A DNA stretch of 64,000 nucleotides from Elusimicrobiota bacterium (GTDB lineage Bacteria; Elusimicrobiota; Elusimicrobia; UBA1565; UBA9628): the NCBI GenBank assembly GCA_023249645.1, contig JAHFCF010000002.1:64806-128805 (forward strand), written 5' to 3'. How positions within the stretch are numbered: the first letter of the stretch is position 1; each line of letters opens with the position of its first letter. The notes beneath the pieces were generated by a model. That model was not told the DNA's origin and ran no database searches. It worked only from the letters and a program-made list of their open reading frames with translations. Positions 41,071 through 62,723 of the stretch are shown here, piece by piece. A program made the translations under genes and the position numbers.

Positions 41071-42561
41071 ATGTTCAACCTCCAGCTCCTCGCCCCCGAG
41101 ATCGTCTTGAGCGTTCTGGCCCTGGCCCTCATGGCCATCGATCTCATCCTGCCAACGAGGCGCTCCCAACTGCCGTACCATCTGGGGTGGATATCGGCCC
41201 TCGTGGCTCTGGCCTGCGTCGTCGCGACACTGGCCACCAGCAGCCAGGGAGCCGGCCCGCTCTGGATCGTGGATCCGTTCAGCCAGCTCTTCAAGGCCAT
41301 GACGCTTTTGGCCGTGATCGTGACCTTCCTGCTCTGCCTGGAATACGAGGACCTCTCGCTCTCCCAGTCAGGGACCTTCGCGGCACTCCTGCTCCTCTCG
41401 GCGGTAGGCCTCATGCTCTTGGTCTCCGCCACGGACCTTCTCTTCCTCTTCGTGTCCCTGGAGCTCGTGGCCGTCTCTTCCTTCATCCTGGCAGGGTTCG
41501 AGAGGCGCAACCGCAAGTCCAACGAAGGCGCCATCAAGTACTTCCTCTTCGGCGCCTTCTCCTCGGCCATCTTCGTCTACGGCCTCTCTCTCTACTACGG
41601 CGCGGCCGGCACGACCAAGCTCTTGATCCTCTCGCAGAACGGCTCGAGCCTGAGCCTCTGGACTCCGGTGCTGACGGGCCTGGGCCGGCAGGGCCCGGTC
41701 CTGCTCTTAGCCATGCTCTTCCTGCTTCTGGGCTTCGGCTTCAAGGCGGCGATGGTGCCCATGCACTTCTGGGTGCCCGATGTCTACGAGGGCGCGCCCA
41801 TGCCGGTGACGACCTTTCTCTCGGTCGCTCCCAAGATCGCGATCATGGGAGTCCTCTTGCGGGTCTTCACGCTCCTGGTGCCGGCCTCGGGCCTGGGCCT
41901 GACCGGGCTTCTGGCCCTCTTGGCCATCCTCACCATGACCGTGGGCAACACCATCGCCATCTTCCAGGACAACGTCAAGCGCCTCTTGGCCTACTCCTCC
42001 ATCGCCCAGGCCGGCTATATCCTGATCGGCATCGTGACCGCCAACTCCCTCGGCTTGGAGGGCGTGCTCCTCTACAGCGCTGTCTACATCGCCATGAACG
42101 TCGGCGCATTCACCGTGCTGCAGGCTGTGGGCAAGAACGGCTCCTACGAGCTTTCGGCCTTCGACGGCCTCTCGCGCCGATCCATGGCACTCGCTCTGAC
42201 CATGGCCGTATTCCTGCTCTCCTTGGCCGGCATCCCTCCGTTGGCTGGGTTCATCGGGAAGTTCTATCTCTTCGCCGCGGCCATGGAGGCCGGCCGCGCA
42301 GCAGCCTCCTCATCCTCGAAAAACATCTTCTACGCCTTGGCCGTGGTCGGCGTCATCAACAGCGTCATCTCGGTCTACTACTACATGAAGATCGTCTACC
42401 ACATGTTCTTCTTACCGCCGCACGAGAGGTCCTCGGCGCCGGCCATCGGTCCCTATCTGCTAGCCGTCCTGGCCGTGTGCCTGGCCGGAGTCCTCGCCTT
42501 CGGCGTCTGGCCGGAGCCTCTCATCGCCCAGATGAGGATCTCCGCCGTGCACCTGCCGTAG
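41071..42561 (+). CDS. nuoN: NADH-quinone oxidoreductase subunit N
   Basis: EGAIKYF, FKAAMVPMHFWVPDVYEGAP, KRLLAYSSIAQAGY, SLAGIPPLAGFIGK. Confidence 0.96.
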   Translation: MFNLQLLAPEIVLSVLALALMAIDLILPTRRSQLPYHLGWISALVALACVVATLATSSQGAGPLWIVDPFSQLFKAMTLLAVIVTFLLCLEYEDLSLSQSGTFAALLLLSAVGLMLLVSATDLLFLFVSLELVAVSSFILAGFERRNRKSNEGAIKYFLFGAFSSAIFVYGLSLYYGAAGTTKLLILSQNGSSLSLWTPVLTGLGRQGPVLLLAMLFLLLGFGFKAAMVPMHFWVPDVYEGAPMPVTTFLSVAPKIAIMGVLLRVFTLLVPASGLGLTGLLALLAILTMTVGNTIAIFQDNVKRLLAYSSIAQAGYILIGIVTANSLGLEGVLLYSAVYIAMNVGAFTVLQAVGKNGSYELSAFDGLSRRSMALALTMAVFLLSLAGIPPLAGFIGKFYLFAAAMEAGRAAASSSSKNIFYALAVVGVINSVISVYYYMKIVYHMFFLPPHERSSAPAIGPYLLAVLAVCLAGVLAFGVWPEPLIAQMRISAVHLP

Positions 42562-42649
42562 GTCTTTGGGCCCACAAAAATCCGGGACCATTGCCGACGC
42601 AGTTTTGGGACTTTTGACCTATGGAGAAATCCTAAAAATAACGTATCCT
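42559..42649 (+). promoter_or_regulatory. Triple-box promoter A
   Basis: TAGGTCTTTGGGCCCA (42559), CGGGACCATTGCCGAC (42583), TGGGACTTTTGACCTA (42606); -10-like TATCCT at 42644. Confidence 0.75.
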
Positions 42650-42680
42650 TTCTGGAGATTGGCCGCAGCAGGAGGTTCAA

Positions 42681-43232
42681 ATGAAAATTTTTAATTCCCT
42701 TTCCGTGATCGCACTTCTCTGCAGTCCGACACCGCTTTTAGCCCGAGCTGGGGGAGGGCTCGCGTCGCATTACATAGCGACGCAGACTGCGCTCAATCAA
42801 AGCCAGCAAGGTGATGGCTGCCCGTGGCTGGGTGCCTCAGGGATTCTGCAATGCGAAATCGAGAAAGCCAAAAAATCACGCGATGAAATCTTTGCCAATG
42901 GCCCTGACAGCAAAACGATCGCCGAAAAGAAACAAGCCGTCGATAGACTCATCGTTCTTTACAACACTTCGAAGAATGAAGAGGTGTGGTTGGATGCCAT
43001 CACAACATTGGTCGGCAGCCCTCTTATGATGTCTAATGAGATTCAGGAATATGCGATCTCCCAGATATGTTATCTGTCGCCGTTGCCGCTTCTTGAAAGC
43101 AAAACCATCAAAGAACGACTCATTGAGAGTCTGCGGAGCTTCACGTATGCTGCTGAGTATCCATATGAGAAACACTCTAAAGCATTCTACATCGATCTCG
43201 CCAAGGAGTTAGCATACCTTGCTCAAGGGTAG
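42681..43232 (+). CDS. Hypothetical secreted protein (lower GC)
   Basis: Signal peptide MKIFNSLSVIALLCSPTPLLARA; AGGAGG RBS; no family recognised. Confidence 0.75.
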   Translation: MKIFNSLSVIALLCSPTPLLARAGGGLASHYIATQTALNQSQQGDGCPWLGASGILQCEIEKAKKSRDEIFANGPDSKTIAEKKQAVDRLIVLYNTSKNEEVWLDAITTLVGSPLMMSNEIQEYAISQICYLSPLPLLESKTIKERLIESLRSFTYAAEYPYEKHSKAFYIDLAKELAYLAQG

Positions 43233-43279
43233 GCTTTCTGCCGTGCACCTGCCGCAGTCAAAATTTGTATCTTCTTCGC

Positions 43280-44158
43280 ATGCGTTTGCGCTGCCTGGCG
43301 TCGACGGTCGTGATCACCTACACGGCCACTGCACTCCTCTCCTGGCATTGCGAAAATATCCTCTTCAAACCCTATGCGGGACTACGCGGCCAGGCACTAG
43401 CCGGAACGGCCAGTGCCGAGGCTCGCGCCACCCAGCGCCTGAGCCGGACGCCTGACTTCTACAAAGCGGAGTACGGATTCGAGAATTTCAACGGAGATCA
43501 ACTCCACATCAGCTATCAGGCCCCGCGCCAGGCCTACGAAGCCTATTGTTCGAGCTTCTGGTACCGCTTGGAAGACCTCAATGCAGCCGGTCCATCTGTG
43601 GATGCCTATCTCGCCTCGCGCGGCTTCAAACGCCTGGAGAAGAACATCATCGAGGCGGATGTGCCCGGCATGGTCAAGAGAAGCTCCGGACCCTTGAAAG
43701 CCCTCTCTAAAGCCTTCGATCGCATCGCCATGGATAAGAACTACGATTCAGAAAGCCTCATCGGCTCGGTCACGGCCATGGTCCAGACCGCGGTGCGCTA
43801 CCAGATCCCGCCCGTCGTTGAAGATGGCCGACACACGGGAGGCATACTGCCTCCGGTCATGTCCCTGATGCGCGGGTGGGGGGACTGCGACACGAAGACC
43901 GGACTTTTGACCTCGATCTTGGTCAACTGGCCGAACATGCGCATGGTCGGCATCGCGCTGCCCGGTCACTATCTCATGGCCGTCTTGCGCATCCCGGCTC
44001 GCGGCGAGGCTTTCGTGGAATACCAGGGCCTGAAATATGTCCTCGTCGAACCCGCCGGACCGGCGTGGCTGGCCCCGGGCACGGTCGGCGTGGACACCCT
44101 GCCGGAACTAGAAGCTGCCGAAGGATTCCGGATCGAGCCGTTTTTTGATCCGTCATAA
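43280..44158 (+). CDS. Membrane-anchored transglutaminase-like cysteine hydrolase
   Basis: N-terminal TM; QTAVRY, GDCDTKT, PGHYLMAV, YVLVEPAGP (Cys-His-Glu order). Confidence 0.75.
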   Translation: MRLRCLASTVVITYTATALLSWHCENILFKPYAGLRGQALAGTASAEARATQRLSRTPDFYKAEYGFENFNGDQLHISYQAPRQAYEAYCSSFWYRLEDLNAAGPSVDAYLASRGFKRLEKNIIEADVPGMVKRSSGPLKALSKAFDRIAMDKNYDSESLIGSVTAMVQTAVRYQIPPVVEDGRHTGGILPPVMSLMRGWGDCDTKTGLLTSILVNWPNMRMVGIALPGHYLMAVLRIPARGEAFVEYQGLKYVLVEPAGPAWLAPGTVGVDTLPELEAAEGFRIEPFFDPS

Positions 44159-44170
44159 AAGGAGAAAACC

Positions 44171-44710
44171 ATGTTCATGATCCGAGTGCTGGTGAGCCTT
44201 TTCGAATTCGTCCTGGCGGTTGTCATGTCCGGCGGCGTCATCTACGCGACCTACCGCGTCTTCATCAAGGCCAACCCAGACTTCGACATGCAGGCCGAGA
44301 TCAAGAAGGGAAACATCGCCGTGGGGCTTCTCGTCTCCACCATCCTCATCTGCGCCTCGGTCTTCGTGGAGAAGGGCATGGCCTCGGTAGTGCACATGTT
44401 CCGACTCTACATCAGCATGCCGGCCCAAGCGCCGATCTCCGGATGGCAGCTGGTCCTCATCGGCTTGGGCCACTTGGCTATTTCCTTGCTGTTAGCAGTC
44501 CTGACCATCTCGCTCACCCTGCGCCTCTTCGGAAGGCTCACCGCCGAGATGCAGGAAGGCAAGGAACTTGAAAAGGGGAATCTGGCGGTCGGTCTTCTCC
44601 TTTCCAGCGTCGTCATCGTGGCCACGTTCTACGTCTCAGGCGGGGTCAGCGCGCTCTCCAAAGCCCTCGTGCCCCAGCCTTCCATCGGACGGATAGAAAT
44701 CCAGAAATAA
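44171..44710 (+). CDS. DUF350-domain membrane protein
   Basis: Duplicated EIKKGNIAVGL / ELEKGNLAVGL motif, four TMs. Confidence 0.85.
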   Translation: MFMIRVLVSLFEFVLAVVMSGGVIYATYRVFIKANPDFDMQAEIKKGNIAVGLLVSTILICASVFVEKGMASVVHMFRLYISMPAQAPISGWQLVLIGLGHLAISLLLAVLTISLTLRLFGRLTAEMQEGKELEKGNLAVGLLLSSVVIVATFYVSGGVSALSKALVPQPSIGRIEIQK

Positions 44711-44716
44711 GCTAAA

Positions 44717-44759
44717 ATGGGTGTCAGGCTTTCTCGTATTTTCCGTATTTGACACCCAT
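44717..44759 (-). repeat. Dispersed 31-nt repeat, copy 2, enclosed by a 10-bp inverted repeat
   Basis: Reverse strand AAATACGGAAAATACGAGAAAGCCTGACAC; arms ATGGGTGTCA / TGACACCCAT reach into the hydA start codon. Confidence 0.85.
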
Positions 44760-46164
44760 GGCGAAAAAACCACACGATCTCCTCATCCGAGGAGCGACGG
44801 TTCTAAGCGCGTCGGACAGTTTCGTGGCGGATATTGCCGTTTCCAATGGGCGCGTCATTGCCTTGGGAGAGGACCTGGGACCGGCCCAGGAATCCATCGA
44901 CGCCCGCGGCCTGGTGGCCGCACCGGGAGGCGTGGACGCGCACACCCATCTCGACATGCCCTGTCCGGGCGGGACCACGGCGGACGATTTTTCCACGGGG
45001 ACGGCCGCCGCTCTCTTCGGCGGCACGACCACCATCATCGATTTCGCGACCCAGCAACGCGGGGGCAGCTGCCTCAAGGCTCTACAAGATTGGCATGCCA
45101 AGGCGGATGGCAAGAGTTTTACGGATTACGCCTTTCACATGGCCATCACGGACATGTCCGAGAGCGCTTCGCGCGAAATGAAGCGTCTCATCGGTGAGGG
45201 CGTGACCAGCTTCAAGCTCTACATGGCCTACCCAGCGCTCCTCTCGGACGACGCGGCCATTCTCAGAGCCTTGGAGCGATCCAATGAGATCGGCGGCTTG
45301 ATCGCCCTGCACTGCGAAAACGAACCGGCCATCGATCGACTGATCAAAGAAGCCATCGCCGCGGGACACATCGAGCCGAGATTCCACCCACTGACCCGGC
45401 CGCCGCAAGCCGAGGCCGAGGCTGTCAGCCGCGCCGTCTCTTTGGCCGAGACGGCCCAGGCGCCCGTCTACATCGTCCATCTCTCGGCAGCGGATTCCCT
45501 CGAAGAGGTGCGCCGCGCCCGCCGCAGGGGTGTGGCTGTCCTGGCTGAGACTTGCCCGCAGTATCTCTATCTGGCCAGCCACGAATACGACAAGCCGTTT
45601 TGTGAAGCAGCACGGTCCGTGATCTCGCCGCCCTTAAGATCCAAGGAGCATTCCCAAGCCCTGTGGCAGGCTTTGTCCTGGGGGGAATTCCAAGCCGTGG
45701 CCACGGACCACTGCACCTTCCCCATGCATTCCAAGCCCGGCAAGCCGGGCAAGGACCGCGGCCTCAAGGATTTCTCAAAGATCCCGGGGGGCGCCCCGGG
45801 CCTGGAGACGCGCATGCTCCTCATGTGGGAGGCGGTGCAAAAAGGCCGGATCTCTTCTTCGCGGTTCGTGGATCTGACCTCGACGGGCCCGGCCAAGGCC
45901 TTCGGCCTCTACCCCCGCAAGGGCCACCTCATGCCTGGGGCCGACGCGGACATCGTGCTCATCGATCCCCAGCACCGCACGACGATCGCTGCCGCCGATC
46001 TTCACCACGCCGTGGACTACACGCCCTTCGAGGGCATCTGCGTGCACGGCGCCATCCGGGAGGTCTTTCTGCGCGGCCGACGCGCCGTCTCCCAAGGACG
46101 GCTCCTGGCCAAGAAAGGCCAAGGCCGCTTTCTCCAGTGCAGCCAAAGACAGTTCTGCCTATGA
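44758..46164 (+). CDS. hydA: Dihydropyrimidinase / D-hydantoinase
   Basis: PGGVDAHTH, GGTTTIIDF, SFKLYMAY, HCEN, YIVHLS, AETCPQYL, SPPLR, ATDHC. Confidence 0.92.
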   Translation: MAKKPHDLLIRGATVLSASDSFVADIAVSNGRVIALGEDLGPAQESIDARGLVAAPGGVDAHTHLDMPCPGGTTADDFSTGTAAALFGGTTTIIDFATQQRGGSCLKALQDWHAKADGKSFTDYAFHMAITDMSESASREMKRLIGEGVTSFKLYMAYPALLSDDAAILRALERSNEIGGLIALHCENEPAIDRLIKEAIAAGHIEPRFHPLTRPPQAEAEAVSRAVSLAETAQAPVYIVHLSAADSLEEVRRARRRGVAVLAETCPQYLYLASHEYDKPFCEAARSVISPPLRSKEHSQALWQALSWGEFQAVATDHCTFPMHSKPGKPGKDRGLKDFSKIPGGAPGLETRMLLMWEAVQKGRISSSRFVDLTSTGPAKAFGLYPRKGHLMPGADADIVLIDPQHRTTIAAADLHHAVDYTPFEGICVHGAIREVFLRGRRAVSQGRLLAKKGQGRFLQCSQRQFCL

Positions 46165-46835
46165 ACTGGAGACCTGGCGTCGCAGGTTTGTCCGGAGGCT
46201 TTGCCGGTGCCTTGGCTGGGCACATCGCCGTGACCCTCATCACGCGCCTCGGCGCGCAGCTCTGGCTCGTCGGCCCCTACGGCCCTCCCATGCAGTTCTT
46301 CGCCATGTCGGTCTATCTCGGCTTCTTGTACGCCAGCATCGCCGGGGCTCTCTCTCGCCAGATCCGTCCCGCCTTAGTCGGCTTCGGGAGCGCCTGCCTC
46401 CCCATCGCTCTGCCCATGACGATCCTGACCCATTGGCCCGGCCCCTTGCGCGCCTTCCTCCATCTGCTCGCAAGATCTCCCGCCATCACTGTCAGGCTCA
46501 TGCGCGCCCTGCATGTGCTCAACCCGATCGCCTTGATCTGGACCATCGCGGTCCTGACCGTCTACCTCGTCGCGACCTGGGGGACGACGCTCGCCCTGGG
46601 GGCGCTGCTATGCCCCGCGCGGCGATGGCTCGGAGCGATCTTGGCCGCTGTCGGCTCCGGGGCCGGCTATCTGGCCCTGCAACTCTTCGCCCATTTCATC
46701 CCGCTGCCGAGCCGATGGGATCCCACGAGCTTCATTCCCGCGCCCCTGGACCTGCTCACCGGGCTCTTGATCGGCGCCGGCATGGGCGCGGGCATCGGCT
46801 GGGCGCAAGACCGGCAGCACAAGGAGCCATCATGA
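46161..46835 (+). CDS. Hypothetical integral membrane protein
   Basis: About 6 hydrophobic helices; ATGA-coupled to both neighbours. Confidence 0.7.
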   Translation: MNWRPGVAGLSGGFAGALAGHIAVTLITRLGAQLWLVGPYGPPMQFFAMSVYLGFLYASIAGALSRQIRPALVGFGSACLPIALPMTILTHWPGPLRAFLHLLARSPAITVRLMRALHVLNPIALIWTIAVLTVYLVATWGTTLALGALLCPARRWLGAILAAVGSGAGYLALQLFAHFIPLPSRWDPTSFIPAPLDLLTGLLIGAGMGAGIGWAQDRQHKEPS

Positions 46836-48193
46836 AGCTCGCCACTCCGGACATCCTCAAGGAAACCGAACACGCCTTGGACCTCGTGGCCAAGGATTCG
46901 CTCACCGCGGAAGACAAGGCTTGGCTCACGCAGGTCACGGCGGACTATTACGCGAACTTCGTCAATCCCGGCATACTCGAGTACCGCAAGTCCGTCTCGA
47001 CCGACTACGTCTCCGTGGAGTGGTCGGACCACGCCAACAGCTTCGAGGACGTCCAGGGCCGCCGCTACCTCGACCTCCTGGGAGGCTACGGCATCTACAA
47101 CGTGGGCCATCGCCATCCCAAGGTCGTGGAGGCCGTCTCGCATCAGCTCAAGCGCCAGGCCCTGCATTCCCAGGAACTCCTTGAGCCCTTCCGCGCCATT
47201 TTGGCCAAGCTCATCAACGACATCACCCCCGGGGACCTGCAGTTCTCCTTTTTCGGCAATTCCGGCGCCGAGGCCATCGAAGGAGCCATGAAACTCGCCA
47301 TGCTCCACACGGGCCGCAAATCCTTCATCGCGGCCAACGCGGGCTTCCACGGAAAGACCCTGGGCGCGCTCTCGGCCACGGCCAAAGCCAAGTTCCGCCA
47401 ACCTTTTTTGCCGATCCTCCCCGACTGCTACCACATCCCTTTCGGCGACGCGGACTACATCGAGTCGGCCTTGAAATCCGCCGACGAAGTGGGCAACGAC
47501 ATCGCGGCCGTCATCCTCGAGCCCATCCAGGGAGAGGGGGGCATCAACGTGCCGCCGGACGACTATTTCCCGCGCGTGCGCGAGCTCTGCGACCGATTCG
47601 GAGCGCTCCTCATCGCCGACGAGATCCAGACGGGCTTCGGCCGCACGGGCCGGATGTGGTGCGTGGACCATTGGGACGTGGTGCCCGACATCATGTGCAT
47701 GGGAAAATCCATGGGCGGCGGAGTCATGCCGATTGGCGCCTTCGTCTCGAACAAGACCATCTGGGAGCACCTCTTCCCAGAGCCCTGGCTGCATTCGACC
47801 ACCTTCGGCGGCAACCCCCTCTCCTGCGTGGCCGCGATCGCCGGCATCCACGTGCTTCTGGACGAGAAGCTCCCCGAGCGGGCGGACAAGATGGGGACCG
47901 AGATGATCGCCAAGCTCAAGGCCCTGCGCCGGCGCTTCCCGAAACTCTGCGCGGACATACGCGGCAAGGGCCTGATGATCGGCATGGAGTTTCCCACGGA
48001 TGCCATCGGCTACGAGGTAGCCAAGGGCCTCTTCGACCACGGCGTGCTGGTGGCAGGCACGCTCTTCTCAGCCAAGACCCTGCGCATCGAGCCGCCCTTA
48101 ACCCTCACGCCCAAGGAGATGGACCAGGCACTCGACGCCATCGAGAAGGTCTTTAAGGAAACCAACGCCAAGCATTTCGAAAAGAAGAAGTAG
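46832..48193 (+). CDS. patA: Putrescine aminotransferase (class III PLP)
   Basis: VNPGILEYRKSV, DLLGGYGIYNVGHRHP, LHSQELL, DEIQTGFGRTG, HSTTFGGNPLSC, RIEPPL. Confidence 0.9.
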   Translation: MKLATPDILKETEHALDLVAKDSLTAEDKAWLTQVTADYYANFVNPGILEYRKSVSTDYVSVEWSDHANSFEDVQGRRYLDLLGGYGIYNVGHRHPKVVEAVSHQLKRQALHSQELLEPFRAILAKLINDITPGDLQFSFFGNSGAEAIEGAMKLAMLHTGRKSFIAANAGFHGKTLGALSATAKAKFRQPFLPILPDCYHIPFGDADYIESALKSADEVGNDIAAVILEPIQGEGGINVPPDDYFPRVRELCDRFGALLIADEIQTGFGRTGRMWCVDHWDVVPDIMCMGKSMGGGVMPIGAFVSNKTIWEHLFPEPWLHSTTFGGNPLSCVAAIAGIHVLLDEKLPERADKMGTEMIAKLKALRRRFPKLCADIRGKGLMIGMEFPTDAIGYEVAKGLFDHGVLVAGTLFSAKTLRIEPPLTLTPKEMDQALDAIEKVFKETNAKHFEKKK

Positions 48194-48217
48194 TACCAGG
48201 TTGTCATTTTTTTAAAG

Positions 48218-48248
48218 AAATACGGAAAATACGTGAAGGTCTGACCCC
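48218..48248 (+). repeat. Dispersed 31-nt repeat, copy 3
   Basis: AAATACGGAAAATACGTGAAGGTCTGACCCC, 28/31 identical to copy 1. Confidence 0.85.
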
Positions 48249-48280
48249 GATTCTTTAAAATTTTGTATTATTATCGCGCA

Positions 48281-50525: not shown

Positions 50526-50578
50526 AAAGGGCCGCTTCCTGGCTCATCAGAGGGGCAAGCCCCGCTGCCAGCCACGCC

Positions 50579-52269: not shown

Positions 52270-52307
52270 AAAATGCTTATAAAATAAGCATTTTTATTTT
52301 AACGACA

Positions 52308-52398
52308 TAGGTCTTTGGACCCAGGATTGCCTGGGTCCTTTATCCAAGAGAAGCTGGGACTTAAGGCCCCTGCGGTATGCCGGGATTCCGGGTATATA
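52308..52398 (+). promoter_or_regulatory. Triple-box promoter B
   Basis: TAGGTCTTTGGACCCA (52308), TGGGTCCTTTATCCAA (52332), TGGGACTTAAGGCCCC (52355); -10-like TATATA at 52393. Confidence 0.75.
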
Positions 52399-52404
52399 GG
52401 GAGT

Positions 52405-53115
52405 ATGCAGACGGCATTGAAAAACAACAAAAAAATGGACAGATTCAGGCATCGGTCCTCTTCTATCGCAGCCGCGGGCGTGCTGCTCGCCTGCATCCTC
52501 TGCGCCCACGCCATCGTGCCCAATCCGAGGTCCATCGATCTCACTCCGCCGGCGCGGCTCGTCGTTGCCGTGCCGCAGCCGAGCCCGGCCTACCGCTACA
52601 CGTTCCGCCATCTCCTCTCCCATCCCAAGATCACGGATCATTATGACGCCATCATCCTGCGCGAAGCCAAGAAGCATCACATGGATCCAAGGCTCGTCAA
52701 AGCCATCATCGCGGCTGAATCGGAATTCGACATGAAAGCCCTTTCCCCGCGAGGCGCCCGGGGCCTCATGCAGGTCCTGCCGATCACCGCTGATGAGATG
52801 AAAATGCCTCGCCAAGCCCTTCAAACCCCGGAAGGCAACATCGCCATCGGCACGGCTTATCTGGAGCTCCTCTTTAAGACGGCCTGGCGGCAGAATCGAT
52901 TCCACGCCATGGATTACGCCGACGCGCCGCCCTGGCTCATCCAGCGCATCATCGCCGCCTACAACGCCGGGCCCAGCTCCCTGCACCGCGACCATTGGGT
53001 GCGCCAGACCCGCGGCTACGTCAAGAAGGTCCTGCTCTTCTACCAGTCCGACGTCGCGACGCTGCGGCCCGCTTCCCGATGGAATTTCCTCGGGCAGCTG
53101 GCCTCAAACCCTTGA
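52405..53115 (+). CDS. SLT-domain lytic transglycosylase with N-terminal TM/signal
   Basis: LVKAIIAAESEF, SPRGARGLMQV, NIAIGTAYL, AAYNAG, TRGYVKKV; start 52405 or 52435. Confidence 0.92.
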   Translation: MQTALKNNKKMDRFRHRSSSIAAAGVLLACILCAHAIVPNPRSIDLTPPARLVVAVPQPSPAYRYTFRHLLSHPKITDHYDAIILREAKKHHMDPRLVKAIIAAESEFDMKALSPRGARGLMQVLPITADEMKMPRQALQTPEGNIAIGTAYLELLFKTAWRQNRFHAMDYADAPPWLIQRIIAAYNAGPSSLHRDHWVRQTRGYVKKVLLFYQSDVATLRPASRWNFLGQLASNP

Positions 53116-54533: not shown

Positions 54534-54539
54534 GCGCGT

Positions 54540-56981
54540 TCAGCGGGCGCTTTCAAGGCGGCGCGTGCGGGTCTCTTTGACGTAGAACTCGAGCTCGTCG
54601 CCCTTCTCGAAAGCCTTGAAGCCCTCGAAATCCATGCCGCACTCAAGGCCCTTCTCCACTTCCTTGACGTCATCCTTGAAGCGCTTAAGCGTGGACACGC
54701 GGCCCTCGTAGGCGAGCACGCCGTTGCGGCGGATCTTCACCAAGCCCCCGCGCACGACCTTGCCGTCGCGGACCATGCAGCCGGCGACCTTGCCGGCCTT
54801 GACCTTGAAGATCTCGCGCAGCTCGCCCTTGCCGACCACGACTTCCACGATCTCGGGGGCGAGCAGGCCCTCCAGGGCGGCCTTGATGTCCGCGATGAGG
54901 TCGTAGATGATCTCGTATTTGCGCACTTCGACGCCCTCGCGGGCCGCGAGTTCCGAGGCGCGCGACTCGATGTCGGAGTGGAACAGCAGCGTCACCGCGT
55001 CCGAGGCCGAGGCCAGGAGGATGTCCGACTCGTTCGCGTTGCCCACGTCCCCGCGGATGATGCGCACGCGGCATTCGGAGTTCGAGAGCGCCTCCAGCGA
55101 ATCCTTGATGGCCTGCAGGGATCCCTGGACATCGGCTTTCAAGACGATGTTCAGATCCTTCATGACCGCCTTGCCGCCGGTCGCGGCCAAGGCGCTCTTC
55201 AAGCCCACGAGCGTCATGTGGCGCTGATGGGCCAGGGTCTGTTCGCGGGCGATGATGGAGCGGCGCTGCGCGATCTCGCGGGCCTGGCGGTCGTTTGAGA
55301 CTACGTTGAAGACGTCGCCGGCCTGCGGGGTTTCGATGATGCCGAGAACCTCGACGGGAGTCGAGGGGCCGGCCTCCAGGATGCGCTTGCCCGTGTCGTC
55401 ATGCAGGGCCTTGACCTTGCCGTGGGCCAGGCCCGCCACGAAGGGATCTCCGGCCTTCAAAGTTCCGCCCTGGACCAGGACCGTGGCCACCACGCCCTTC
55501 TTGGGATCCAGACGAGCTTCCAGGACCACGCCGTAAGCGGGGCGATCCGGATTGGCCTTGAGATCCAGGATCTCGGCCTGCAGGGCCAGCATCTCCAAAA
55601 GCGTGTCGATGTGCAGCTTCATCTTGGCCGAAACGTCGACGAAGATGTTCTTGCCGCCCCATTCCTCGGGTTGGATGCCCCGCTGGGCGAGGTCCTGGCG
55701 GATCTTCTGCGGGTTGGCGCCCGGCAGGTCGATCTTGTTGACCGCGACCACGATGGGCACGTCGGCGGCCTTGGCGTGGTCGATGGCCTCGATGGTCTGC
55801 GGCATGACCCCGTCGGTCGCGGAGACCACGATGACCACGATGTCGGTGACCTTGGCTCCCCGCGCGCGCATAGCCGTGAAAGCCTCGTGGCCCGGCGTGT
55901 CGAGAAAGACGATGTCTCCCTTGGACGTGTGCGCGCGATAGGCGCCGATGTGCTGGGTGATGCCGCCCGATTCGCCTTCGGCGACGCGGGCGGAGCGGAT
56001 GGCGTCCAAAAGCTTGGTCTTGCCGTGGTCCACATGGCCCATGACGGTCACGACAGGGGCCCGGGACTTCAGGGATTCCGGCTTCTCGGTCTCGGGACCG
56101 CCCGCCGCCTGGATCTCCTCTTCCTTGTACAGGGCGACGAAATCGAGCTCGAAGCCGAACTCGGCCGCGATGATGGCGGCTGATTCGCTCTCGAGGCGCT
56201 GGTTGATCGTGGCGAAGATGCCCAGGTTCATGAGCTTCTTGATGACATCGGAGGACTTGATCTCCATCTTCTCGGCCAAGTCCCGCACGGTCATCATGCT
56301 GGAGACCTGGAGCTTCTTCAAGGACGGCTTGGGTGCCGCGGCTGCTGGAGCCGGGGTTGGCGAGGCCACAGACGGATGCACCACCACCACCGGCCTAGCC
56401 GGCATCTTGACAGGCTTGGGCCCATGCTTGGCGCCCGGCGGGATGGCCGGCCTGAAGGAGGATCTGGGAGGCGGAGGGCCTGTGCGCACGGAGGGGGACG
56501 GCGTCCGAACAGGCGCCTGCGGAGCAGGCGCCGCCGGTGCCGGCTTGGGAGCCGGCGCAGCAACGGAAGCCTGGGTTGGAACGGGCGGCGCTGCGAGGGT
56601 CGCAGGAGCGGCGGACACCGGCGTGGGCGCCGGTTCCACGGTCTTGGCCGGGGCCTGCGGTGCAGGCGCCGCCGGTGGCGGAGGCGGCTTGGGTAAAGAA
56701 GCTCCGGCCGCTAGACGCGTGACCGTGGGGCCTGTCGAACGGATGAGATTTTTCTTTTTGAAAAGGTCGAAGGCGGAGACCAGATGCTGCGAGGGGGGAG
56801 CGATGGAGCCCTTTTCCTGGGTGGGACGCTTCTCGGCCGCCGTCGCGCGAATGCCGGCGACAGCCTTTTTGGGCGACGCTGCCGGCTTAGGGGACTTCTG
56901 AGCGGGCGCAAGCTTGGCCGCCGGCTTGGGCTTGAGGGCTTTCGCAGGCTTAGCCGTCTTTCCCGCCTTTTTCTTCTCCAT
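54540..56981 (-). CDS. infB: Translation initiation factor IF-2
   Basis: [40 protein letters not shown]; Lys/Ala/Pro-rich N-terminus. Confidence 0.97.
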
Positions 56982-56997
56982 CCATGGATGATAGCAT

Positions 56998-58242
56998 TTA
57001 TGCCTTGGACTCGTCCGGCGGCGCTGGCACATGCTTCTTCGCCGCGGCGATGATCTTGGCCGCGGTCTTCTCGCCGATCCCTTCCAAAGCCGTCAGTTCC
57101 TCGAGCGTGGCCTCGGCCAAGCGGGCCGGGTCCGAGAAACCGCCAGCCGCCAGGACCTCCGCGGTCTTCTCGCCCACTCCTTCCAGGCCCCTCAGGCCGG
57201 CACTGCCGGCCGCAGGTGCAGGCTTGACCTCCAGGTCCCAGCCGGTCAAGCGGCAAGCCAGGCGGACGTTCTGACCGTCTTTTCCGATGGCCAGGCTCAG
57301 GTGCTCCTCGGTGACGAGCGCCTGGGCGCGCTTGTTGGCGGCATCCAGGATCCTCACTTCGGCGACCTTGGCAGGAGCCAGGGAGTTGGCCAGGAACTTG
57401 GAGAGGTCCGCGTCGAAGGGAATGAGGTCGATGCGCTCGCCGGCCAGCTCGTTCATGATGCTGCGGATGCGCGAGCCGCGCAGCCCCACGCAGGAGCCGA
57501 CCGGGTCCACCTTGGGGTCATTGGACTTGACCAGGACCTTGGCACGGAAGCCCGGATCGCGCACGACCTCGATGATCTCGACGATCTTCTCGACGATCTC
57601 CGGGACCTCCAGCTCGAAAAGGCGCTTGAGGAACAAGGGCGCCGCCCGCGAAAGGACGACCTGGGGGCCGCGCTGGGCCCGGTCCACGCGCGAGATCAGC
57701 GCGCGCACGTTGGCGCCGATCGCGTAATGCTCGCGGCGGATCTGCTCGCGCGCGGGCAGGATCGCCTCAGCCTTGCCGATGTCGACGATGACGTTGCGCT
57801 CCTGGAAACGGTGCACGGAGCCGGAGATGATCTCGCCTTCCTTGGGTTTGAACTCGTCGTAAAGGGTGTCCCTCTCCTTCTCCCGGATCTTCTGGGCCAG
57901 GACCTGCTTGGCGGTCTGCGCGGCGATGCGGGCGAAATCCGTCACGGGCGCGGACAGGCGCAGGTCGTCGCCGACGGTCGCGTTGGACTTCTCGCGCTTG
58001 GCATCGGCCAGAGAGATCTCAAGCTCGGCATTCGCCACGGTCTCCACCACGCGTTTGACCACGCAGGCCTTGAACTCCGCGGTCTCGGGATCGATGGACG
58101 CTTCGATGATCGCCTCCTCGCCCACGTGCTTGCGCAAGGAGCTCACGACCGCCTCCTCGATCATCTTAAGGATCTCGCCCTTGGGGAGGTTCTTCTCCCG
58201 TTCCAGCTGCTCCAAAGCCACCACCAGCTCTGATTTCGCCAT
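56998..58242 (-). CDS. nusA: Transcription factor NusA
   Basis: RIAAQTAKQV, S1 and KH domains (DPVGSCVGLRGSRI, AIGKDGQNVRLA), C-terminal HhH pair. Confidence 0.96.
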   Translation of the reverse strand: MAKSELVVALEQLEREKNLPKGEILKMIEEAVVSSLRKHVGEEAIIEASIDPETAEFKACVVKRVVETVANAELEISLADAKREKSNATVGDDLRLSAPVTDFARIAAQTAKQVLAQKIREKERDTLYDEFKPKEGEIISGSVHRFQERNVIVDIGKAEAILPAREQIRREHYAIGANVRALISRVDRAQRGPQVVLSRAAPLFLKRLFELEVPEIVEKIVEIIEVVRDPGFRAKVLVKSNDPKVDPVGSCVGLRGSRIRSIMNELAGERIDLIPFDADLSKFLANSLAPAKVAEVRILDAANKRAQALVTEEHLSLAIGKDGQNVRLACRLTGWDLEVKPAPAAGSAGLRGLEGVGEKTAEVLAAGGFSDPARLAEATLEELTALEGIGEKTAAKIIAAAKKHVPAPPDESKA

Positions 58243-58245
58243 GAC

Positions 58246-58701
58246 TTAAACCTCCGCCGAATCATCCAGCCGCGTCTCATCGATGCGGTCGAGAGAAAAC
58301 GCCCAGCGCTTGCCTTCGCCTTCCACGATCACTTGGCCGTTCTCGAAGCCGCGCAGGATGCCCTTGAAGTTGCGCCGTCCTTCCTCGGGCAAACGCAGAC
58401 GCAGCTTCACGGCCTTGCCGGAAAATCGGATGAAATCCTTCTCTTTTTTCACGATCCGATCCAGCCCGGGAGACGACACCTCCAGGACGTAGGAACTCGG
58501 GATGGCGTTCGTCTCGTCAAGCAGGGCCCCCAAGCGGTTGGAGAGATGCTCGCAATCGTCCAAGTTGATGCCGCCCTCCTTGTCCAAAAAGAAGCGCAGG
58601 ATCTGCGAGCCGTGCTCGTTGCCGAATTCCACATGCACAAGCTCCGCCGCCTCCTGGCTGAGGAGGGGCTCGACCAGCTTCTCGATCTCTGAAATGTCCA
58701 T
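58246..58701 (-). CDS. rimP: Ribosome maturation factor RimP
   Basis: INLDDC, YVLEVSSPGLDR. Confidence 0.95.
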   Translation of the reverse strand: MDISEIEKLVEPLLSQEAAELVHVEFGNEHGSQILRFFLDKEGGINLDDCEHLSNRLGALLDETNAIPSSYVLEVSSPGLDRIVKKEKDFIRFSGKAVKLRLRLPEEGRRNFKGILRGFENGQVIVEGEGKRWAFSLDRIDETRLDDSAEV

Positions 58702-58711
58702 TTTTGAGAAT

Positions 58712-58741
58712 AAAAAAAGTGGCTTTGCTGCTAGCCACTTT
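58712..58741 (-). terminator. Terminator-like hairpin in the rimP leader (possible attenuator)
   Basis: Minus strand AAAGTGGCT-AGCAGCAA-AGCCACTTTTTTT, between promoter and rimP start. Confidence 0.7.
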
Positions 58742-58763
58742 ATCTCCAGGCTGCGTTGAGATG

Positions 58764-58793
58764 ATTATATCATTCGACGGAAAAGCCTGTCAA
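58764..58793 (-). promoter_or_regulatory. Consensus sigma70 promoter of the rimP-nusA-infB operon
   Basis: TTGACA (58793-58788), 18 nt, TATAAT (58769-58764) with TGn extension. Confidence 0.8.
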
Positions 58794-60136
58794 ATGGACC
58801 TCGACTTCAGTATCCCTTCCGCGGCCAGAAGGCCCGTAGCCGCCGCGCCGACGATGCCGCGCGAGTACCCCGAGGCGTCGCCGGCGAAATAGATCCCCGG
58901 CACGTTGCTTTCCAGAGAGGCCGTCGTCTTCACGCGGATGCCGTGGAACTTGATCTCCGGAGCGTAGAGCAGCGTGTGGTCCTGCGCCAGACCCGGGATC
59001 AGCTTATCGAGCCTGTCCAATCCCTCCAGGATCCCCGTGACAAACCGGTGGCCCATGGCCATGCCGATGTCTCCCGGTGTGACGTCCTGCAGAGTGGGGG
59101 AAACGTAGCTGTGCGAGAGCCGATCGAATGTGCTGCGCCGGTTGCGGCGCAGATCGCCCAAACGCTGGATGATGGGCTTGCCTCCTCCCAGATAGGTCAC
59201 CTGCTCAGCGAGCTTAGCCGCGTAGGTGTTCGCGTTCTTCAAGGGAGAAGTCAGGCGGCTCTTGATCAGAAAGGCGAAATTCGTATTGGGGCTTCTCGTG
59301 TGCTTGCGCGAATGGCCATTGACCAGGCTGTAGGTGTCGTAATCCTCGCGCGCGACATAGCCGTAGGGGCAGGTGCAGAAGGTTCGGGCGATGTCCTCGT
59401 TCTTCAGGCGCACGCGCGCCTTGAAGTCCCAATTGACCGAGCAGGCGTACTCCAAGATCGAGGCCGGGACCTCCACGCGCACGCCGATGTCCACGGGGTT
59501 GTATTCATAGTCGATGCCCTGGCGCTCGACCACGGCCTCGATCCATTCGGCCCCGCTTCTTCCCGGGGCCACGATGATCCTGTCGCAGGCATGTTTTCCC
59601 GATGGCGTGCCAACGAATCCTTGCCCAAGCTCCGTCACATCCTCATGGACGATGCGCACCTTCCCATGGAAATCCTCAATGAGGGCGGCGATGACGTCCG
59701 GCAGCCTGTCGCTGCCCACATGGCTCTGATGCGCCGCGATGTACTCGATGCCGTGCTGGTTGGCCTGGGTCTGCAAGAGACGCGAATCCGCGGGCTTGTC
59801 CGCGTCGGCCTTCACCCCGTGATGGGCGAACAGGGCCTCCACATCCGAGACGAGCCTTTGGGTCTCGGGGATGCCGATGAGTTCCGGCAGATTGGTGCCG
59901 ATGATCGTCGAGAACATAAGCTTGCCGTCGCTGAAAAGCCCAGCCCCGCCGATGCCGGAGGCGATGTTGCACGGCTTGCAGTTGACGCACTCCTTGCCTT
60001 GGGCGACCAGGCATTTCCTCGCGGCGATATCCCGGCCTTTCTCAAAAAGAACGATCTCCATATCCTTGCCGGAACGGACCAGCTTGTGCGCGGCGAAAAG
60101 CCCGGCCGGTCCCGCTCCAACGATCGCGATCTTCAT
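58790..60136 (-). CDS. Uncharacterised FAD-dependent oxidoreductase (COG2509-like)
   Basis: IVGAGPAG, GIGGAGLFSDGK, HVGSD, APGRSG, DIGVRVE, RTFCTCP.G, YAPEIKF, AGDASG. Confidence 0.85.
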   Translation of the reverse strand: MKIAIVGAGPAGLFAAHKLVRSGKDMEIVLFEKGRDIAARKCLVAQGKECVNCKPCNIASGIGGAGLFSDGKLMFSTIIGTNLPELIGIPETQRLVSDVEALFAHHGVKADADKPADSRLLQTQANQHGIEYIAAHQSHVGSDRLPDVIAALIEDFHGKVRIVHEDVTELGQGFVGTPSGKHACDRIIVAPGRSGAEWIEAVVERQGIDYEYNPVDIGVRVEVPASILEYACSVNWDFKARVRLKNEDIARTFCTCPYGYVAREDYDTYSLVNGHSRKHTRSPNTNFAFLIKSRLTSPLKNANTYAAKLAEQVTYLGGGKPIIQRLGDLRRNRRSTFDRLSHSYVSPTLQDVTPGDIGMAMGHRFVTGILEGLDRLDKLIPGLAQDHTLLYAPEIKFHGIRVKTTASLESNVPGIYFAGDASGYSRGIVGAAATGLLAAEGILKSRSI

Positions 60137-61158
60137 GCTGATCTCAGATCCAAGACATCCATCAAGCCCGGCCCATAAGAGACGAGTCCCACGCGGGGAT
60201 AAGGATAGACCGCGCACAGTCTCTCGAGGATGGCCAAAAACTTCCCGGCCTCTCCCCGGAAGCTCTTCAAACCCTGAGAAAAATCAGCTCCCTCCATCAA
60301 GTCCGCATGGGTGATGGCGAGCTGGGTCGCCGAATTGATGGTGATGGCCTGGACGGCAGATCCCATCTCAAAACGGCCGACTCGCCGCAGCCGGCCGCTG
60401 ACACTGCCGACCTCCCGGCCTGTCGTGTGATAGACGCCGAGCTTCTTCACATCCCTGAGCTCCTGGGAGACAGGCCCTGGCCCCACGCGGGTCACATAGG
60501 GCTTGAAGATGACATAGACATCGCCGGCGTATTTGGGCCCGAGGCCGGCCTCTCCCATGAAGGTCGAGGCGGTCGTGTCCCGGGAGGTGACATGGGGATA
60601 TTCCCCATGCAGGTTGGAGAGCTTCATGCCCTGCGTGCCTTCCAGAAGAACGCGCCGACCCTTCTCCAGGGCCTTGTTCAAGACAGCGGGCACATCCTGG
60701 ACGTATTTCTTGAGCCTCGGATGATCCTTGGCGAACCGCAGGGATTTGCGCTCGATGCGTTCCACGACCGCGGCGCCCAACCCCGTGCCCACGCTGCCGA
60801 TCTTGCCCATCATCCTCTTGTCGGATTTCTCGGCGAGCGTGTGGCGCGGCTCGATGATGACCGCGTGAGGATCGATGATGAAACGATCCTGCGAGCCGGT
60901 CAGCTTGATCTCCTTCTCCAACCAATCCGGGATGATGTAGGTCCCGGCCCCCAAGACGAGCTTGGTCTTCTTGTTCACGAAGCCGGAGGGGACCGTCTTC
61001 AAAGCATAGATGCGGCCTTCGAAAAAAACGGTGTGTCCGGCGTTCGGCCCGCCGACGCGGACGGAATAATCGTAGTCGCCTTCATGGGCCAGATAGGCCG
61101 CGATCTTGCCCTTGCCCTCGTCTCCCGCCTGACCTCCCACGACAATATCAACAGGCAT
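60133..61158 (-). CDS. purA: Adenylosuccinate synthetase, short type (341 aa)
   Basis: GGQAGDEGKGKI, GGPNAGHT, LLEGTQG, YPHVTSRD, YVTRVGPGP, GRLRRVGRF. Confidence 0.93.
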   Translation of the reverse strand: MPVDIVVGGQAGDEGKGKIAAYLAHEGDYDYSVRVGGPNAGHTVFFEGRIYALKTVPSGFVNKKTKLVLGAGTYIIPDWLEKEIKLTGSQDRFIIDPHAVIIEPRHTLAEKSDKRMMGKIGSVGTGLGAAVVERIERKSLRFAKDHPRLKKYVQDVPAVLNKALEKGRRVLLEGTQGMKLSNLHGEYPHVTSRDTTASTFMGEAGLGPKYAGDVYVIFKPYVTRVGPGPVSQELRDVKKLGVYHTTGREVGSVSGRLRRVGRFEMGSAVQAITINSATQLAITHADLMEGADFSQGLKSFRGEAGKFLAILERLCAVYPYPRVGLVSYGPGLMDVLDLRSA

Positions 61159-61175
61159 TTGATGTCTCCTTTATA

Positions 61176-61223
61176 GGGTCAGGCCTTGAGTTTTGAGTCA
61201 ACTCAAAACTCAAGGCCTGACCC
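61176..61223. repeat. Perfect 23-bp-arm hairpin of the GGGTCAG-tagged family
   Basis: GGGTCAGGCCTTGAGTTTTGAGT-CA-ACTCAAAACTCAAGGCCTGACCC; supplies the purB C-terminal GSGLEF and stop. Confidence 0.9.
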
Positions 61224-62543
61224 CATTTTTTTCGCCAATCCCAGATAGTTGGTCGGAGAAAGGCTCTTCAGTTCGCGCTTGACCGTTGGCCTGACATCGA
61301 GGCCATCGATAAAGGCATGCAGCTCCTTCAGGCTGACTCGGCGACCACGGACCAGACGCGCCAACTGCTCGTAAGGCTGGACAGCTTTCTCACGACGCAA
61401 AATGGTCTGGATTCCTTCAGAAATGACCTCTGGATGAGACTCCAGCTCGGCCAAGGCCGCGGCCTCATTGACAGAGATCCCGGCCAAGCCGCTGACAAGG
61501 AACTGATACGCCACCAAACAATGCCCGAAAGCGACTCCGAAATTTCGCAGGACCGTAGAATCCGAAAGATCCCGCTGAAGCCTGGAGATCGGCAGTTTGG
61601 CAGAGAAGAAACCGAGCAGGGCATTGGCCAAGCCCAGATTGCCTTCCGCGTTCTCGAACTTGATCGGATTGACCTTCTGCGGCATGGTGGAGGAGCCGAT
61701 CTCTCCGGCCACGGCTTTCTCGACGATCAAGCCCAGGGAAATGTAGCGCCACAGATCCTGGCACAAACCCAGGAGGATGATATTCACACGACGCAGAGCG
61801 TCGAACAGCTCGGCCTGAGAATCATGCGGCTCGATCTGCGTGGTAAGGGGGGAATAATCCAAGCCAAAAGAGAGGATGAAATCCCTGGAGAATCTTTCCC
61901 AGTCCCGCTTGGGGAATGCCGCGCAGAGCGCGTTGTAGTTGCCAACCGCGCCATTGAGCTTGGCACAAAGATGGATGGACTCAAGGCCTCGGACCTGACG
62001 GCTGAGTCGCGAGTGAAAGACGCGGAATTCCTTCCCGAAAGTCGTGGGAACAGCAGGCTGGCCATGGGTCCTGGCCAGAAGCGGCGAAGCCGCGTATCGC
62101 ACGGAGAGCTTGTCCAGCGTCTTGAGGATGGCGTTCAAAGCAGGCAGGATCTCGCTCTGAAGGCCATCCGTGAGCATCAAGGCATAGGCGATGTTGTTGA
62201 CATCCTCGGAAGTCAGGCCGAAATGCACGAAGCCGGCCAGATCCTTGAGGCTGGTCTTGAGAAGTCTCTCCCGGAGATAGTACTCCACGGCCTTGACATC
62301 GTGCTTGGTCACGGCTTCCAGGCGGACGATCCGGGCCAGATCGGACTGTGTCGGATCCTCCAATCCCGCGAGGATACGCTTTTCGTGAGGCTTGAGTTTT
62401 CGGATGCCGAGCTTTTGAAGATAGCGGCACTCGACTTGGAGCCTGTGCCGGATCAACACCCCTTCGCCAAGGCGGCGCCCCATTCCTTTAATAAGGGGGG
62501 AATACCGGCCGTCTAGAGGACTGATGAGATCCATGCGGTCCAT
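61203..62543 (-). CDS. purB: Adenylosuccinate lyase
   Basis: ISPLDGRY, HDVKAVEY, HFGLTSEDVNN, ARTHGQPA, GSSTMPQKVNPI, SRLQRDLSDST. Confidence 0.96.
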   Translation of the reverse strand: MDRMDLISPLDGRYSPLIKGMGRRLGEGVLIRHRLQVECRYLQKLGIRKLKPHEKRILAGLEDPTQSDLARIVRLEAVTKHDVKAVEYYLRERLLKTSLKDLAGFVHFGLTSEDVNNIAYALMLTDGLQSEILPALNAILKTLDKLSVRYAASPLLARTHGQPAVPTTFGKEFRVFHSRLSRQVRGLESIHLCAKLNGAVGNYNALCAAFPKRDWERFSRDFILSFGLDYSPLTTQIEPHDSQAELFDALRRVNIILLGLCQDLWRYISLGLIVEKAVAGEIGSSTMPQKVNPIKFENAEGNLGLANALLGFFSAKLPISRLQRDLSDSTVLRNFGVAFGHCLVAYQFLVSGLAGISVNEAAALAELESHPEVISEGIQTILRREKAVQPYEQLARLVRGRRVSLKELHAFIDGLDVRPTVKRELKSLSPTNYLGLAKKMGSGLEF

Positions 62544-62552
62544 AATTGCCCG

Positions 62553-62614
62553 CAAAAATGCCCTGTGTCGGCAAGAACCTTCCGACCCAGGGCTTCTTGC
62601 GAGTTATTATAGCA
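62553..62614 (-). promoter_or_regulatory. Extended -10 promoter and structured leader of the purB operon
   Basis: TGcTATAAT (62614-62606); leader contains GCCCTG.GTCGG...CCGAC.CAGGGC hairpin followed by ATTTTT. Confidence 0.55.
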
Positions 62615-62633
62615 AACTTTTCAAAAACAGGAA

Positions 62634-62723
62634 TAGGTCTTTTGGCCCACCCGCGACTAGGTCCATTGTCATAGCCCACCTAGGACCAAAGGCCCCTGTC
62701 GGATTTCATAATCCGGCTAAACT
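62634..62723 (+). promoter_or_regulatory. Triple-box promoter C
   Basis: TAGGTCTTTTGGCCCA (62634), TAGGTCCATTGTCATA (62658), TAGGACCAAAGGCCCC (62681); -10-like TAAACT at 62718. Confidence 0.75.

Follow-up and report, generated by a model that had tools for sequence, protein, structure and literature searches.

Arrays of a 16-bp palindrome at promoters of exported-protein genes in an Elusimicrobiota bacterium and a candidate DosR-like activator

Here, we analysed a 64,000-nucleotide stretch of the genome of an Elusimicrobiota bacterium (assembly GCA_023249645.1, contig JAHFCF010000002.1, positions 64,806 to 128,805 of the forward strand; referred to as the window), in which three sites carry arrays of a 16-bp palindromic box in front of genes coding for predicted exported proteins. 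Across the whole genome, about 80-120 promoters are of this type. Computation gives good support for the motif and its arrangement in arrays, for a constant distance to the -10 element and the absence of a -35 element, for the enrichment of exported proteins and for conservation across families; from these we infer that the bound protein activates rather than represses, that it binds cooperatively and which protein it is. That the boxes are class II activator sites of a secretome regulon is very probable in our assessment. Given this promoter logic, we favour, with rather better than even confidence, a NarL-type response regulator encoded in the window as the protein that would bind them. Taken as a whole, we consider it probable that a DosR-like class II activator, most likely this response regulator, governs a secretome regulon, and multiplying the confidence in the component steps leaves this proposal slightly above an even chance.

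The source assembly comprises 2.27 Mb in 38 contigs with a guanine-plus-cytosine (GC) content of 62%, for which our own, crude gene calls gave 1987 genes and a coding fraction of 92.9%, with intergenic DNA making up 7.1% of the genome. A symmetric position weight matrix (PWM) was built iteratively from the boxes, and its column counts yield the 16-bp consensus TRGGYC-TWWA-GRCCYA. At a threshold of at least 12 bits, the PWM produced 230 matches, 190 of which are intergenic, and at a threshold of at least 16 bits 126 of 133 matches are intergenic; six column-permuted PWMs, which served as controls, gave 19-82 matches with 1-9 of them intergenic. When the threshold was lowered to at least 9 bits, 228 of 377 matches were intergenic and spread over 119 intergenic regions, in line with the large regulon that a preceding reading of the window without database searches (the sequence-only reading) had proposed. 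The strict palindrome occurs 91 times compared to a median of 14 over 360 permuted patterns. Because one permuted pattern reached 92, it is the placement and spacing of the boxes, and not their raw count, that carry the argument. With regard to placement, boxes are present in 56 of 215 divergent and 60 of 920 tandem intergenic regions, and in 3 of 142 convergent ones. With regard to spacing, the distance between neighbouring boxes is 22-25 bp in 61 of 109 pairs and 46-48 bp in a further 30. The step from the proximal to the middle element measures 23 or 24 bp and that from the middle to the distal element mostly 24 bp, and the chains at the strong promoters described below have one (n = 30), two (n = 24), three (n = 28) or four members (n = 1). 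Where a distal box is present at 46-48 bp (42 arrays), the middle element scores 9.0 bits on average in its left half and -2.9 bits in its right half. As the middle element matches in its left half only, the array consists of a full site, a half-site and a second full site.

Arrays were oriented towards their flanking gene or genes, which gave 172 candidates, and a -10-like hexamer was sought 28-49 nt from the start of the proximal box. All promoter positions given here are counted from these predicted -10 elements, with the hexamer set at -12 to -7. Such a hexamer was found in 107 oriented promoters, at an offset of exactly 38 nt in 65 and of 37-39 nt in 83 of them. At random intergenic positions, used as control, a hexamer of this kind was present in 114 of 621 cases and its offsets were flatly distributed. 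The 83 strong promoters are spread over 75 intergenic regions, eight of which are divergent regions with a correctly spaced -10 on both sides. Their hexamers are of the housekeeping type, TATAAT being the commonest (15 of 83). On this numbering, the proximal box spans -50 to -35 and is centred at -42.5. None of the 33 box promoters examined has a good -35 element, as the match to TTGACA does not exceed four of six positions in any of them; the two bases past the box are often TG, which leaves a vestigial TTG at -35. The source genome does have canonical promoters, since 33 of 427 non-box -10-like hexamers are preceded by a five- or six-position match to TTGACA at 16-18 bp. A proximal box at -50 to -35 next to a poor -35 is the class II geometry that the sequence-only reading had suggested. 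That reading had also named a PWM scan as the analysis that could overturn it, and the further matches turned out to be intergenic, to avoid convergent regions, to be arrayed at 23-24 bp and to stand at a fixed 38 nt from the -10.

Past the -10 element of 35 of the 83 promoters, at 4-9 nt and mostly 6-7 nt, lies an ATG with which an open reading frame (ORF) of at least 50 amino acids begins; an ATG is also visible at this position in the promoter consensus. The mRNAs of these 35 promoters would be leaderless, starting on the A of the ATG, and leaderless mRNAs look to be common. As an independent check on the predicted starts, 33 of the 35 candidates encode signal-peptide-like N-termini, and several of the crude start calls were corrected by the leaderless ATGs.

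The nature of the targets was assessed with a crude heuristic of our own for signal peptides, which cannot separate them from N-terminal membrane anchors. Using uncorrected start calls, signal-peptide-like N-termini were predicted for 77 of 172 flanking genes compared to 110 of 546 other first genes (p = 7e-10). When a start-tolerant version of the test was applied equally to all genes, these numbers rose to 76 of 83 strong targets and 128 of all 172 genes flanking a box-bearing region, compared to 194 of 546 other first genes (strong targets versus other first genes: odds ratio 19.7, p = 2e-23). The exported-protein programme that had been suggested from the window alone is thereby seen across the genome. 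Among 20 targets sampled for a Pfam scan, 12 are without a family and one has a sub-threshold HEAT_2 match. A Pfam match was obtained for the remaining seven, namely a ParB-like nuclease, a PLD-domain protein, an alpha-amylase, two S41 peptidases with PDZ domains, a calpain-like protease and an Endonuclease I. The identifiable targets are secreted hydrolases. Giant proteins of 1919-5069 amino acids are also among the targets. As a separate observation, six large exported proteins encoded outside the window (contigs C3, C13, C26, C29, C32 and C37), including open frames of 4022 and 5166 residues, share the motif L-S-P-G-x(2-3)-[AC]-[YW]-A at the end of the signal-peptide-like region, and this may be a lineage-specific signal or sorting motif. 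A tandem pair of S41 peptidase paralogues with 46% identity is encoded at C28:85282-87944, and a box array precedes the first of these only.

The box is also found outside the source genome. A strict palindrome is present in 21 of 21 relatives from the same order (reversed control: 0-1) and, in a sample of the phylum, in 46 of 52 genomes of the class compared to 4 of 69 genomes of other classes, with one match each. In G070, a 1.4-Mb genome of a different family whose fetched loci have a GC content of about 46%, boxes are 22-25 bp apart at 11 of 15 loci and a -10 stands exactly 38 nt from the box at 9 of 15; the ORFs that follow begin with signal-peptide-like sequences. In an evenly drawn sample of the class, the pattern of a box followed by N21-23 and TANNNT gave 198 matches compared to 50 with a control spacer of N27-29. 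This box/-10 pattern occurs in all genomes of families f1, f2, f3, f4, f8, f28, f30, f31 and f32, in no genome of families f6, f9, f29 and f33, and with one or two matches in three of six f7 genomes. The motif thus persists across families of very different GC content, and a regulon of about a hundred promoters is kept across several families. For the gene of the lytic transglycosylase (SLT domain) at site 2 of the window, a box and a -10 at the correct distance precede the homologue at 8 of 17 loci in relatives from three families; no relative of the SLT protein was found in one scan of the genome contigs.

The candidate regulator is a response regulator of 224 amino acids encoded in the window (Table 1), consisting of a receiver domain (Pfam Response_reg, E = 5.8e-31, residues 8-119) and a GerE/LuxR-type helix-turn-helix (HTH) domain (Pfam GerE, E = 1e-15, residues 155-208). 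It is one of only two GerE-type proteins in the source genome, which are paralogous response regulators with 76% identity. Of the 52 class genomes in the phylum sample, 48 have an orthologue of the window copy with 64-86% identity, and the best match elsewhere is 54% identical. In the same sample, the palindrome is present in 44 of 48 genomes with an orthologue compared to 6 of 73 without. Similarly, in the class sample the box/-10 pattern was found in all 26 genomes that have an orthologue at 64% identity or more, compared to 3 of 25 without (four matches in all); the architecture is at chance level in the 25 orthologue-free genomes. For families f28, f30, f31, f32, f29 and f33, the presence or absence of the regulator was predicted from the motif beforehand, and the result agreed with the prediction. 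All 13 orthologues and paralogues compared, from five families, share an invariant recognition helix, SVKT[IV]KNHLNS. Upstream of 15 candidate regulator genes, no boxes of at least 7 bits were seen, apart from those belonging to the divergent neighbour of one XRE gene and a single match of 11.9 bits. Seven XRE/cI-like proteins were found, and none of them stood out as a regulator candidate. The paralogue on contig C8 ends a gene cluster (C8:376-5318) that codes for an OmpR-type regulator, a single-domain receiver, a dCache-HAMP histidine kinase and a receiver-kinase hybrid, and the contig ends 147 bp past the paralogue gene. It is possible that this cluster is a phosphorelay feeding the regulon.

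The system that most resembles these promoters is DevR/DosR of Mycobacterium tuberculosis, for which we draw on two accounts. According to these, the DosR dimer recognises a 20-bp palindrome, reading G4G5G6A7C8T9 in each of its halves (PMC3177182), with residues K179, K182 and N183 reading GGGACT in the activation complex (PMC13486717). At least two boxes in tandem are required at DevR promoters, for example at -42.5 and -63.5, and their cooperativity requires an in-phase box spacing of 21 bp (PMC3177182), and the activation complex sits at -43.5 beside a suboptimal -35, where it touches sigma region 4 and alpha (PMC13486717). As far as these sources describe it, the likeness to the palindromic GGGAC-N4-GTCCC box lies in the 4-bp TWWA centre and the 16-bp core geometry, with one base of each half-site differing, and it extends to the use of two or more tandem boxes with the proximal one at -42.5/-43.5 by a poor -35 (here placed from predicted -10 elements) and to the ability of one array to serve divergent promoters. 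In an ungapped alignment to DevR (3c3w; fragment 6-64 onto 149-207), the base-reading residues K179, K182 and N183 have identical counterparts in K185, K188 and N189 of the candidate. There are also differences. The fourth base of the half-site is Y here and A in the DosR box as described, the array has a half-site in the middle, and the regulon comprises about 80-120 exported-protein promoters compared to about 48 hypoxia genes. The candidate matches DevR (3c3w) with E = 4e-31, VraR scores slightly better and the candidate stays below every NCBIfam equivalog cut-off (the MadR family scores highest, with 150 bits at a cut-off of 300); it is therefore not a DosR orthologue and forms a separate NarL subfamily. 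The guess of a NarL/DosR-like switch, made in the sequence-only reading, stands insofar as the box is close to that of DosR and orthologues of the only two GerE-type regulators track the motif; the identity of the regulator itself is drawn from correlation and resemblance.

Other systems are informative in different respects. The best full-length PDB matches of the candidate are VraR/LiaR proteins (E about 1e-34), which have the same NarL-family domain architecture and are cell-envelope stress regulators controlling envelope-related genes; the recognition helix of VraR reads KTVKTH and that of the candidate KTIKNH. In the DegS-DegU system of Bacillus subtilis, a response regulator of the NarL family controls secreted hydrolases, among them proteases and amylase, but DegU sites differ from the present palindrome, and the regulon described here consists mostly of orphan exported and giant surface proteins. 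With regard to geometry, the lambda operators OR1, OR2 and OR3 are about 24 and 23 bp apart from centre to centre and are bound by cooperative dimers, and a cI dimer at about -42 activates PRM through sigma region 4. Lambda cI belongs to another protein family and acts at a single phage locus rather than on a chromosomal regulon, so that this is an analogy of geometry only; it indicates that a spacing of 23-24 bp can support cooperativity.

We propose that the boxes act as operators for a dimeric activator, which would switch on a large regulon of exported proteins. A typical promoter would consist of a full palindrome at -50 to -35, a vestigial TTG or absent -35 and a TATAAT-like -10 22 bp further on, with a half-site 23 or 24 bp and a second full palindrome 47 bp upstream of the proximal box. 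Bound at the proximal box, the dimer would bring in sigma-70-type RNA polymerase through contacts with sigma region 4 and alpha (class II), and the upstream sites might load the proximal site cooperatively. In divergent regions, one array would serve both directions, as predicted for site 3 of the window. The activator would be the response regulator of the window together with its 76%-identical paralogue, acting in the manner of DosR/DevR at tandem Dev boxes.

Several observations weigh against this proposal. An extended -10 TG is present in 23 of the 83 strong promoters, some of which may therefore fire without an activator. The boxes are 23-24 bp apart and out of helical phase, in contrast to the 21-bp, in-phase arrangement described for DevR. 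Membership of the regulon is not kept for every gene: for the S41 peptidases, a box was found upstream of 0 of 10 best homologues from other regulator-bearing genomes and of 0 of 19 homologues from genomes lacking the regulator, a result that is uninformative on orthologues because identities are 34-45%, paralogues are many and orthology is doubtful. In a further difference from DosR, there is no histidine kinase gene beside the window copy, whose neighbours code for a sedolisin-like protease and a histone-fold protein. No box was found upstream of the response regulator gene in the source genome or in 12 other copies, and there is thus no sign of autoregulation. The K-K-N triad does not discriminate, as KT[V]KN is also present in 47-54%-identical homologues from motif-less genomes. 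Lastly, the motif-bearing families may form one clade, in which case any clade-specific protein would correlate equally; the genomes are not independent, and the phyletic link is confounded by descent and may reflect one ancestral event. The points that concern the regulator, above all a link to the motif that is correlative and might go back to a single evolutionary event, would also fit the same class II logic on tandem boxes with a different, possibly uncharacterised DNA-binding protein that is confined to the same lineages. We regard this as unlikely, though not negligibly so. The box has the geometry and the central TWWA of DosR, as far as these are described, GerE-type proteins are the family known for such sites, and the candidate is unusually conserved with its invariant helix. 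The other obvious class II candidate is Crp/Fnr, which was considered first because the position and dyad symmetry of the box suggested that family. Crp/Fnr was rejected as regulator because G070, which is 98% complete and contains 15 strict palindromes, has no HTH_Crp_2 match; four Crp/Fnr proteins are encoded in the source genome, and G100 and G132 have sub-threshold matches only.

A site over -50 to -35 could also block RNA polymerase, and the promoters with an extended -10 TG might be independent of a -35. The arrays might accordingly be operators for a repressor or silencer holding the secretome genes off, or sites of a chromatin-organising protein, for which the histone-fold gene adjoining the regulator gene could be taken as a hint. 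A repressor would not need the 1-bp register to the -10 that is seen in the 83 of 107 promoters with an offset of 37-39 nt, a usable -35 is missing from the box promoters but present at other promoters in the genome, and the position equals that of activating DevR boxes in the source cited. The histone-fold gene adjoins the regulator within the genus only, at 2 of 12 loci, and was dropped as a functional link. We therefore consider repression or chromatin organisation quite improbable. The strictly fixed spacing to the -10 and the frequency of the element, which is present in 116 of 1135 non-convergent intergenic regions, would also suit a box that is read by RNA polymerase itself, as an alternative sigma or UP-like element without a separate regulator. 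However, sigma or alpha contacts would not yield a dyad 16-mer repeated two or three times at 23-24 bp and serving both directions, and the -10 is of the housekeeping TATAAT type, which makes such an element very unlikely. Finally, a palindrome recurring in intergenic DNA might be a mobile or REP-like repeat without a regulatory role, but the spacers and flanks are unconserved, convergent regions are nearly free of boxes, the register with -10 elements and start codons is fixed, and the motif is kept across families of very different GC content. It is hardly conceivable that the boxes are of this kind, and the argument for protein binding rather than a mobile repeat, made earlier from the window, is upheld.

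Gene regulation in Elusimicrobiota is almost unstudied, and a full-text literature search found no description of the motif, the regulon or regulation in this phylum. Class II activation by NarL/DosR-type proteins on tandem boxes is known already; new are the lineage, the size and content of the regulon, the many predicted leaderless targets, the full/half/full array, the 23-24-bp spacing and the orphan, highly conserved candidate regulator. If our proposal is correct, one short DNA rule would predict the starts, the true start codons and the co-regulation of about 100 exported proteins, most of which have no family, and the box would mark secretome genes and leaderless starts when the metagenome-assembled genomes of the clade are annotated. 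The analysis also names a candidate master regulator. This would be a natural variant of the DosR mechanism, with another spacing and a built-in half-site, and useful for the study of dimer cooperativity in the NarL family. More tentatively, and with a confidence that falls somewhat short of even, we suggest that an orphan NarL-type regulator might be the master activator of most of the secretome in a multi-family clade of Elusimicrobia, with many leaderless mRNAs and full/half/full, out-of-phase arrays. The secretome in question would range from giant surface proteins and dozens of orphan exported proteins to secreted nucleases and proteases, an amylase and a transglycosylase, and a phylum with almost no known regulation would then have one switch by which cells change between a 'naked' and an 'armed' surface.

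The three arrays of the window and the associated genes are listed in Table 1. The sequence-only reading had described triple palindromes with boxes at offsets 0, +24 and +47 and a -10-like hexamer 37-38 nt past the start of the third box. Offsets and hexamer were seen at all three sites, and the spacers have no common sequence at any of them. The palindromic nature is confirmed for the outer boxes (14.5-22.2 bits), but not for the middle element, of which only the left half matches. The downstream genes, read earlier as two orphan secreted proteins and a lytic transglycosylase, all have signal-peptide-like N-termini, and the SLT domain was found; for the two orphans, there is no match to a Pfam or NCBIfam family. 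A PWM scan of the window detected no arrays beyond these three, and the remaining matches of at least 7 bits are isolated and weak.

Table 1. Box arrays, associated genes and candidate regulator in the window. Positions are those of the window; box scores are from the PWM.
Feature	Position	Strand	Remarks
Site 1, distal full palindromic box TAGGTCTTTGGGCCCA	42559-42574	.	20.9 bits
Site 1, middle element CGGGACCATTGCCGAC	42583-42598	+	-7.8 bits scored as full palindrome; box-like part is the left half-site CGGGACC only
Site 1, promoter-proximal full box TGGGACTTTTGACCTA	42606-42621	.	19.9 bits; predicted span -50 to -35
Site 1, -10-like hexamer TATCCT	42644-42649	+	38 nt from start of box 3
Gene for 183-amino-acid orphan protein	42681-43232	+	signal-peptide-like N-terminus; AGGAGG ribosome-binding site
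Site 2, distal full box TAGGTCTTTGGACCCA	52308-52323	.	22.2 bits
Site 2, middle half-site element TGGGTCCTTTATCCAA	52332-52347	+	5.9 bits
Site 2, proximal box TGGGACTTAAGGCCCC	52355-52370	.	15.9 bits
Site 2, -10-like hexamer TATATA	52393-52398	+	38 nt from start of proximal box
Lytic transglycosylase gene (SLT domain)	52405-53115	+	signal-peptide-like sequence starts at internal ATG 52435
Site 3, box 1 TAGGTCTTTTGGCCCA	62634-62649	.	20.9 bits; distal for orphan gene, proximal for purB
Site 3, middle half-site element TAGGTCCATTGTCATA	62658-62673	+	11.5 bits
Site 3, box proximal to orphan gene TAGGACCAAAGGCCCC	62681-62696	.	14.5 bits
Site 3, -10-like hexamer TAAACT	62718-62723	+	37 nt from start of proximal box
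Gene for 175-amino-acid orphan protein	62751-63278	+	signal-peptide-like N-terminus
Site 3, perfect TATAAT	62606-62611	-	score 9 of 9; 38 nt from minus-strand start of box 1 (22-nt spacer)
purB (adenylosuccinate lyase)	61203-62483	-	divergent from site 3; not an exported protein
Candidate regulator, 224-amino-acid response regulator (receiver and GerE/LuxR HTH)	31064-31738	-	in window

The distal box of site 1 overlaps the stop codon of the upstream nuoN-like gene (Pfam Proton_antipo_M), and the N-terminus of the orphan protein encoded downstream resembles that of a box-regulated protein on contig C26. At site 2, the first ATG of the SLT gene is only 6 nt past the -10, so that the mRNA may alternatively be leaderless. 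In the stretch separating the ABC permease gene from site 2 (52270-52300), an A/T-rich inverted repeat followed by a T run was noted by eye, which looks like an intrinsic terminator insulating the box promoter. Site 3 may be bidirectional, with its minus-strand promoter facing purB as a possible second target.

In the neighbourhood of the candidate regulator, a gene coding for a histone-fold protein of 60 amino acids (31920-32102, plus strand) lies divergently; its product has full-length matches to solved structures of bacterial histone-fold proteins, PDB 8fvx and 8cmp (E about 2e-7) and no match in Pfam or NCBIfam. No boxes were seen upstream at 26541-30887 on the minus strand, directly downstream of the regulator. 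This region codes for a 1448-amino-acid protein with pro-kumamolisin (sedolisin) activation and fibronectin type III domains, and it is followed by a gene for an exported protein of 349 amino acids without a family.

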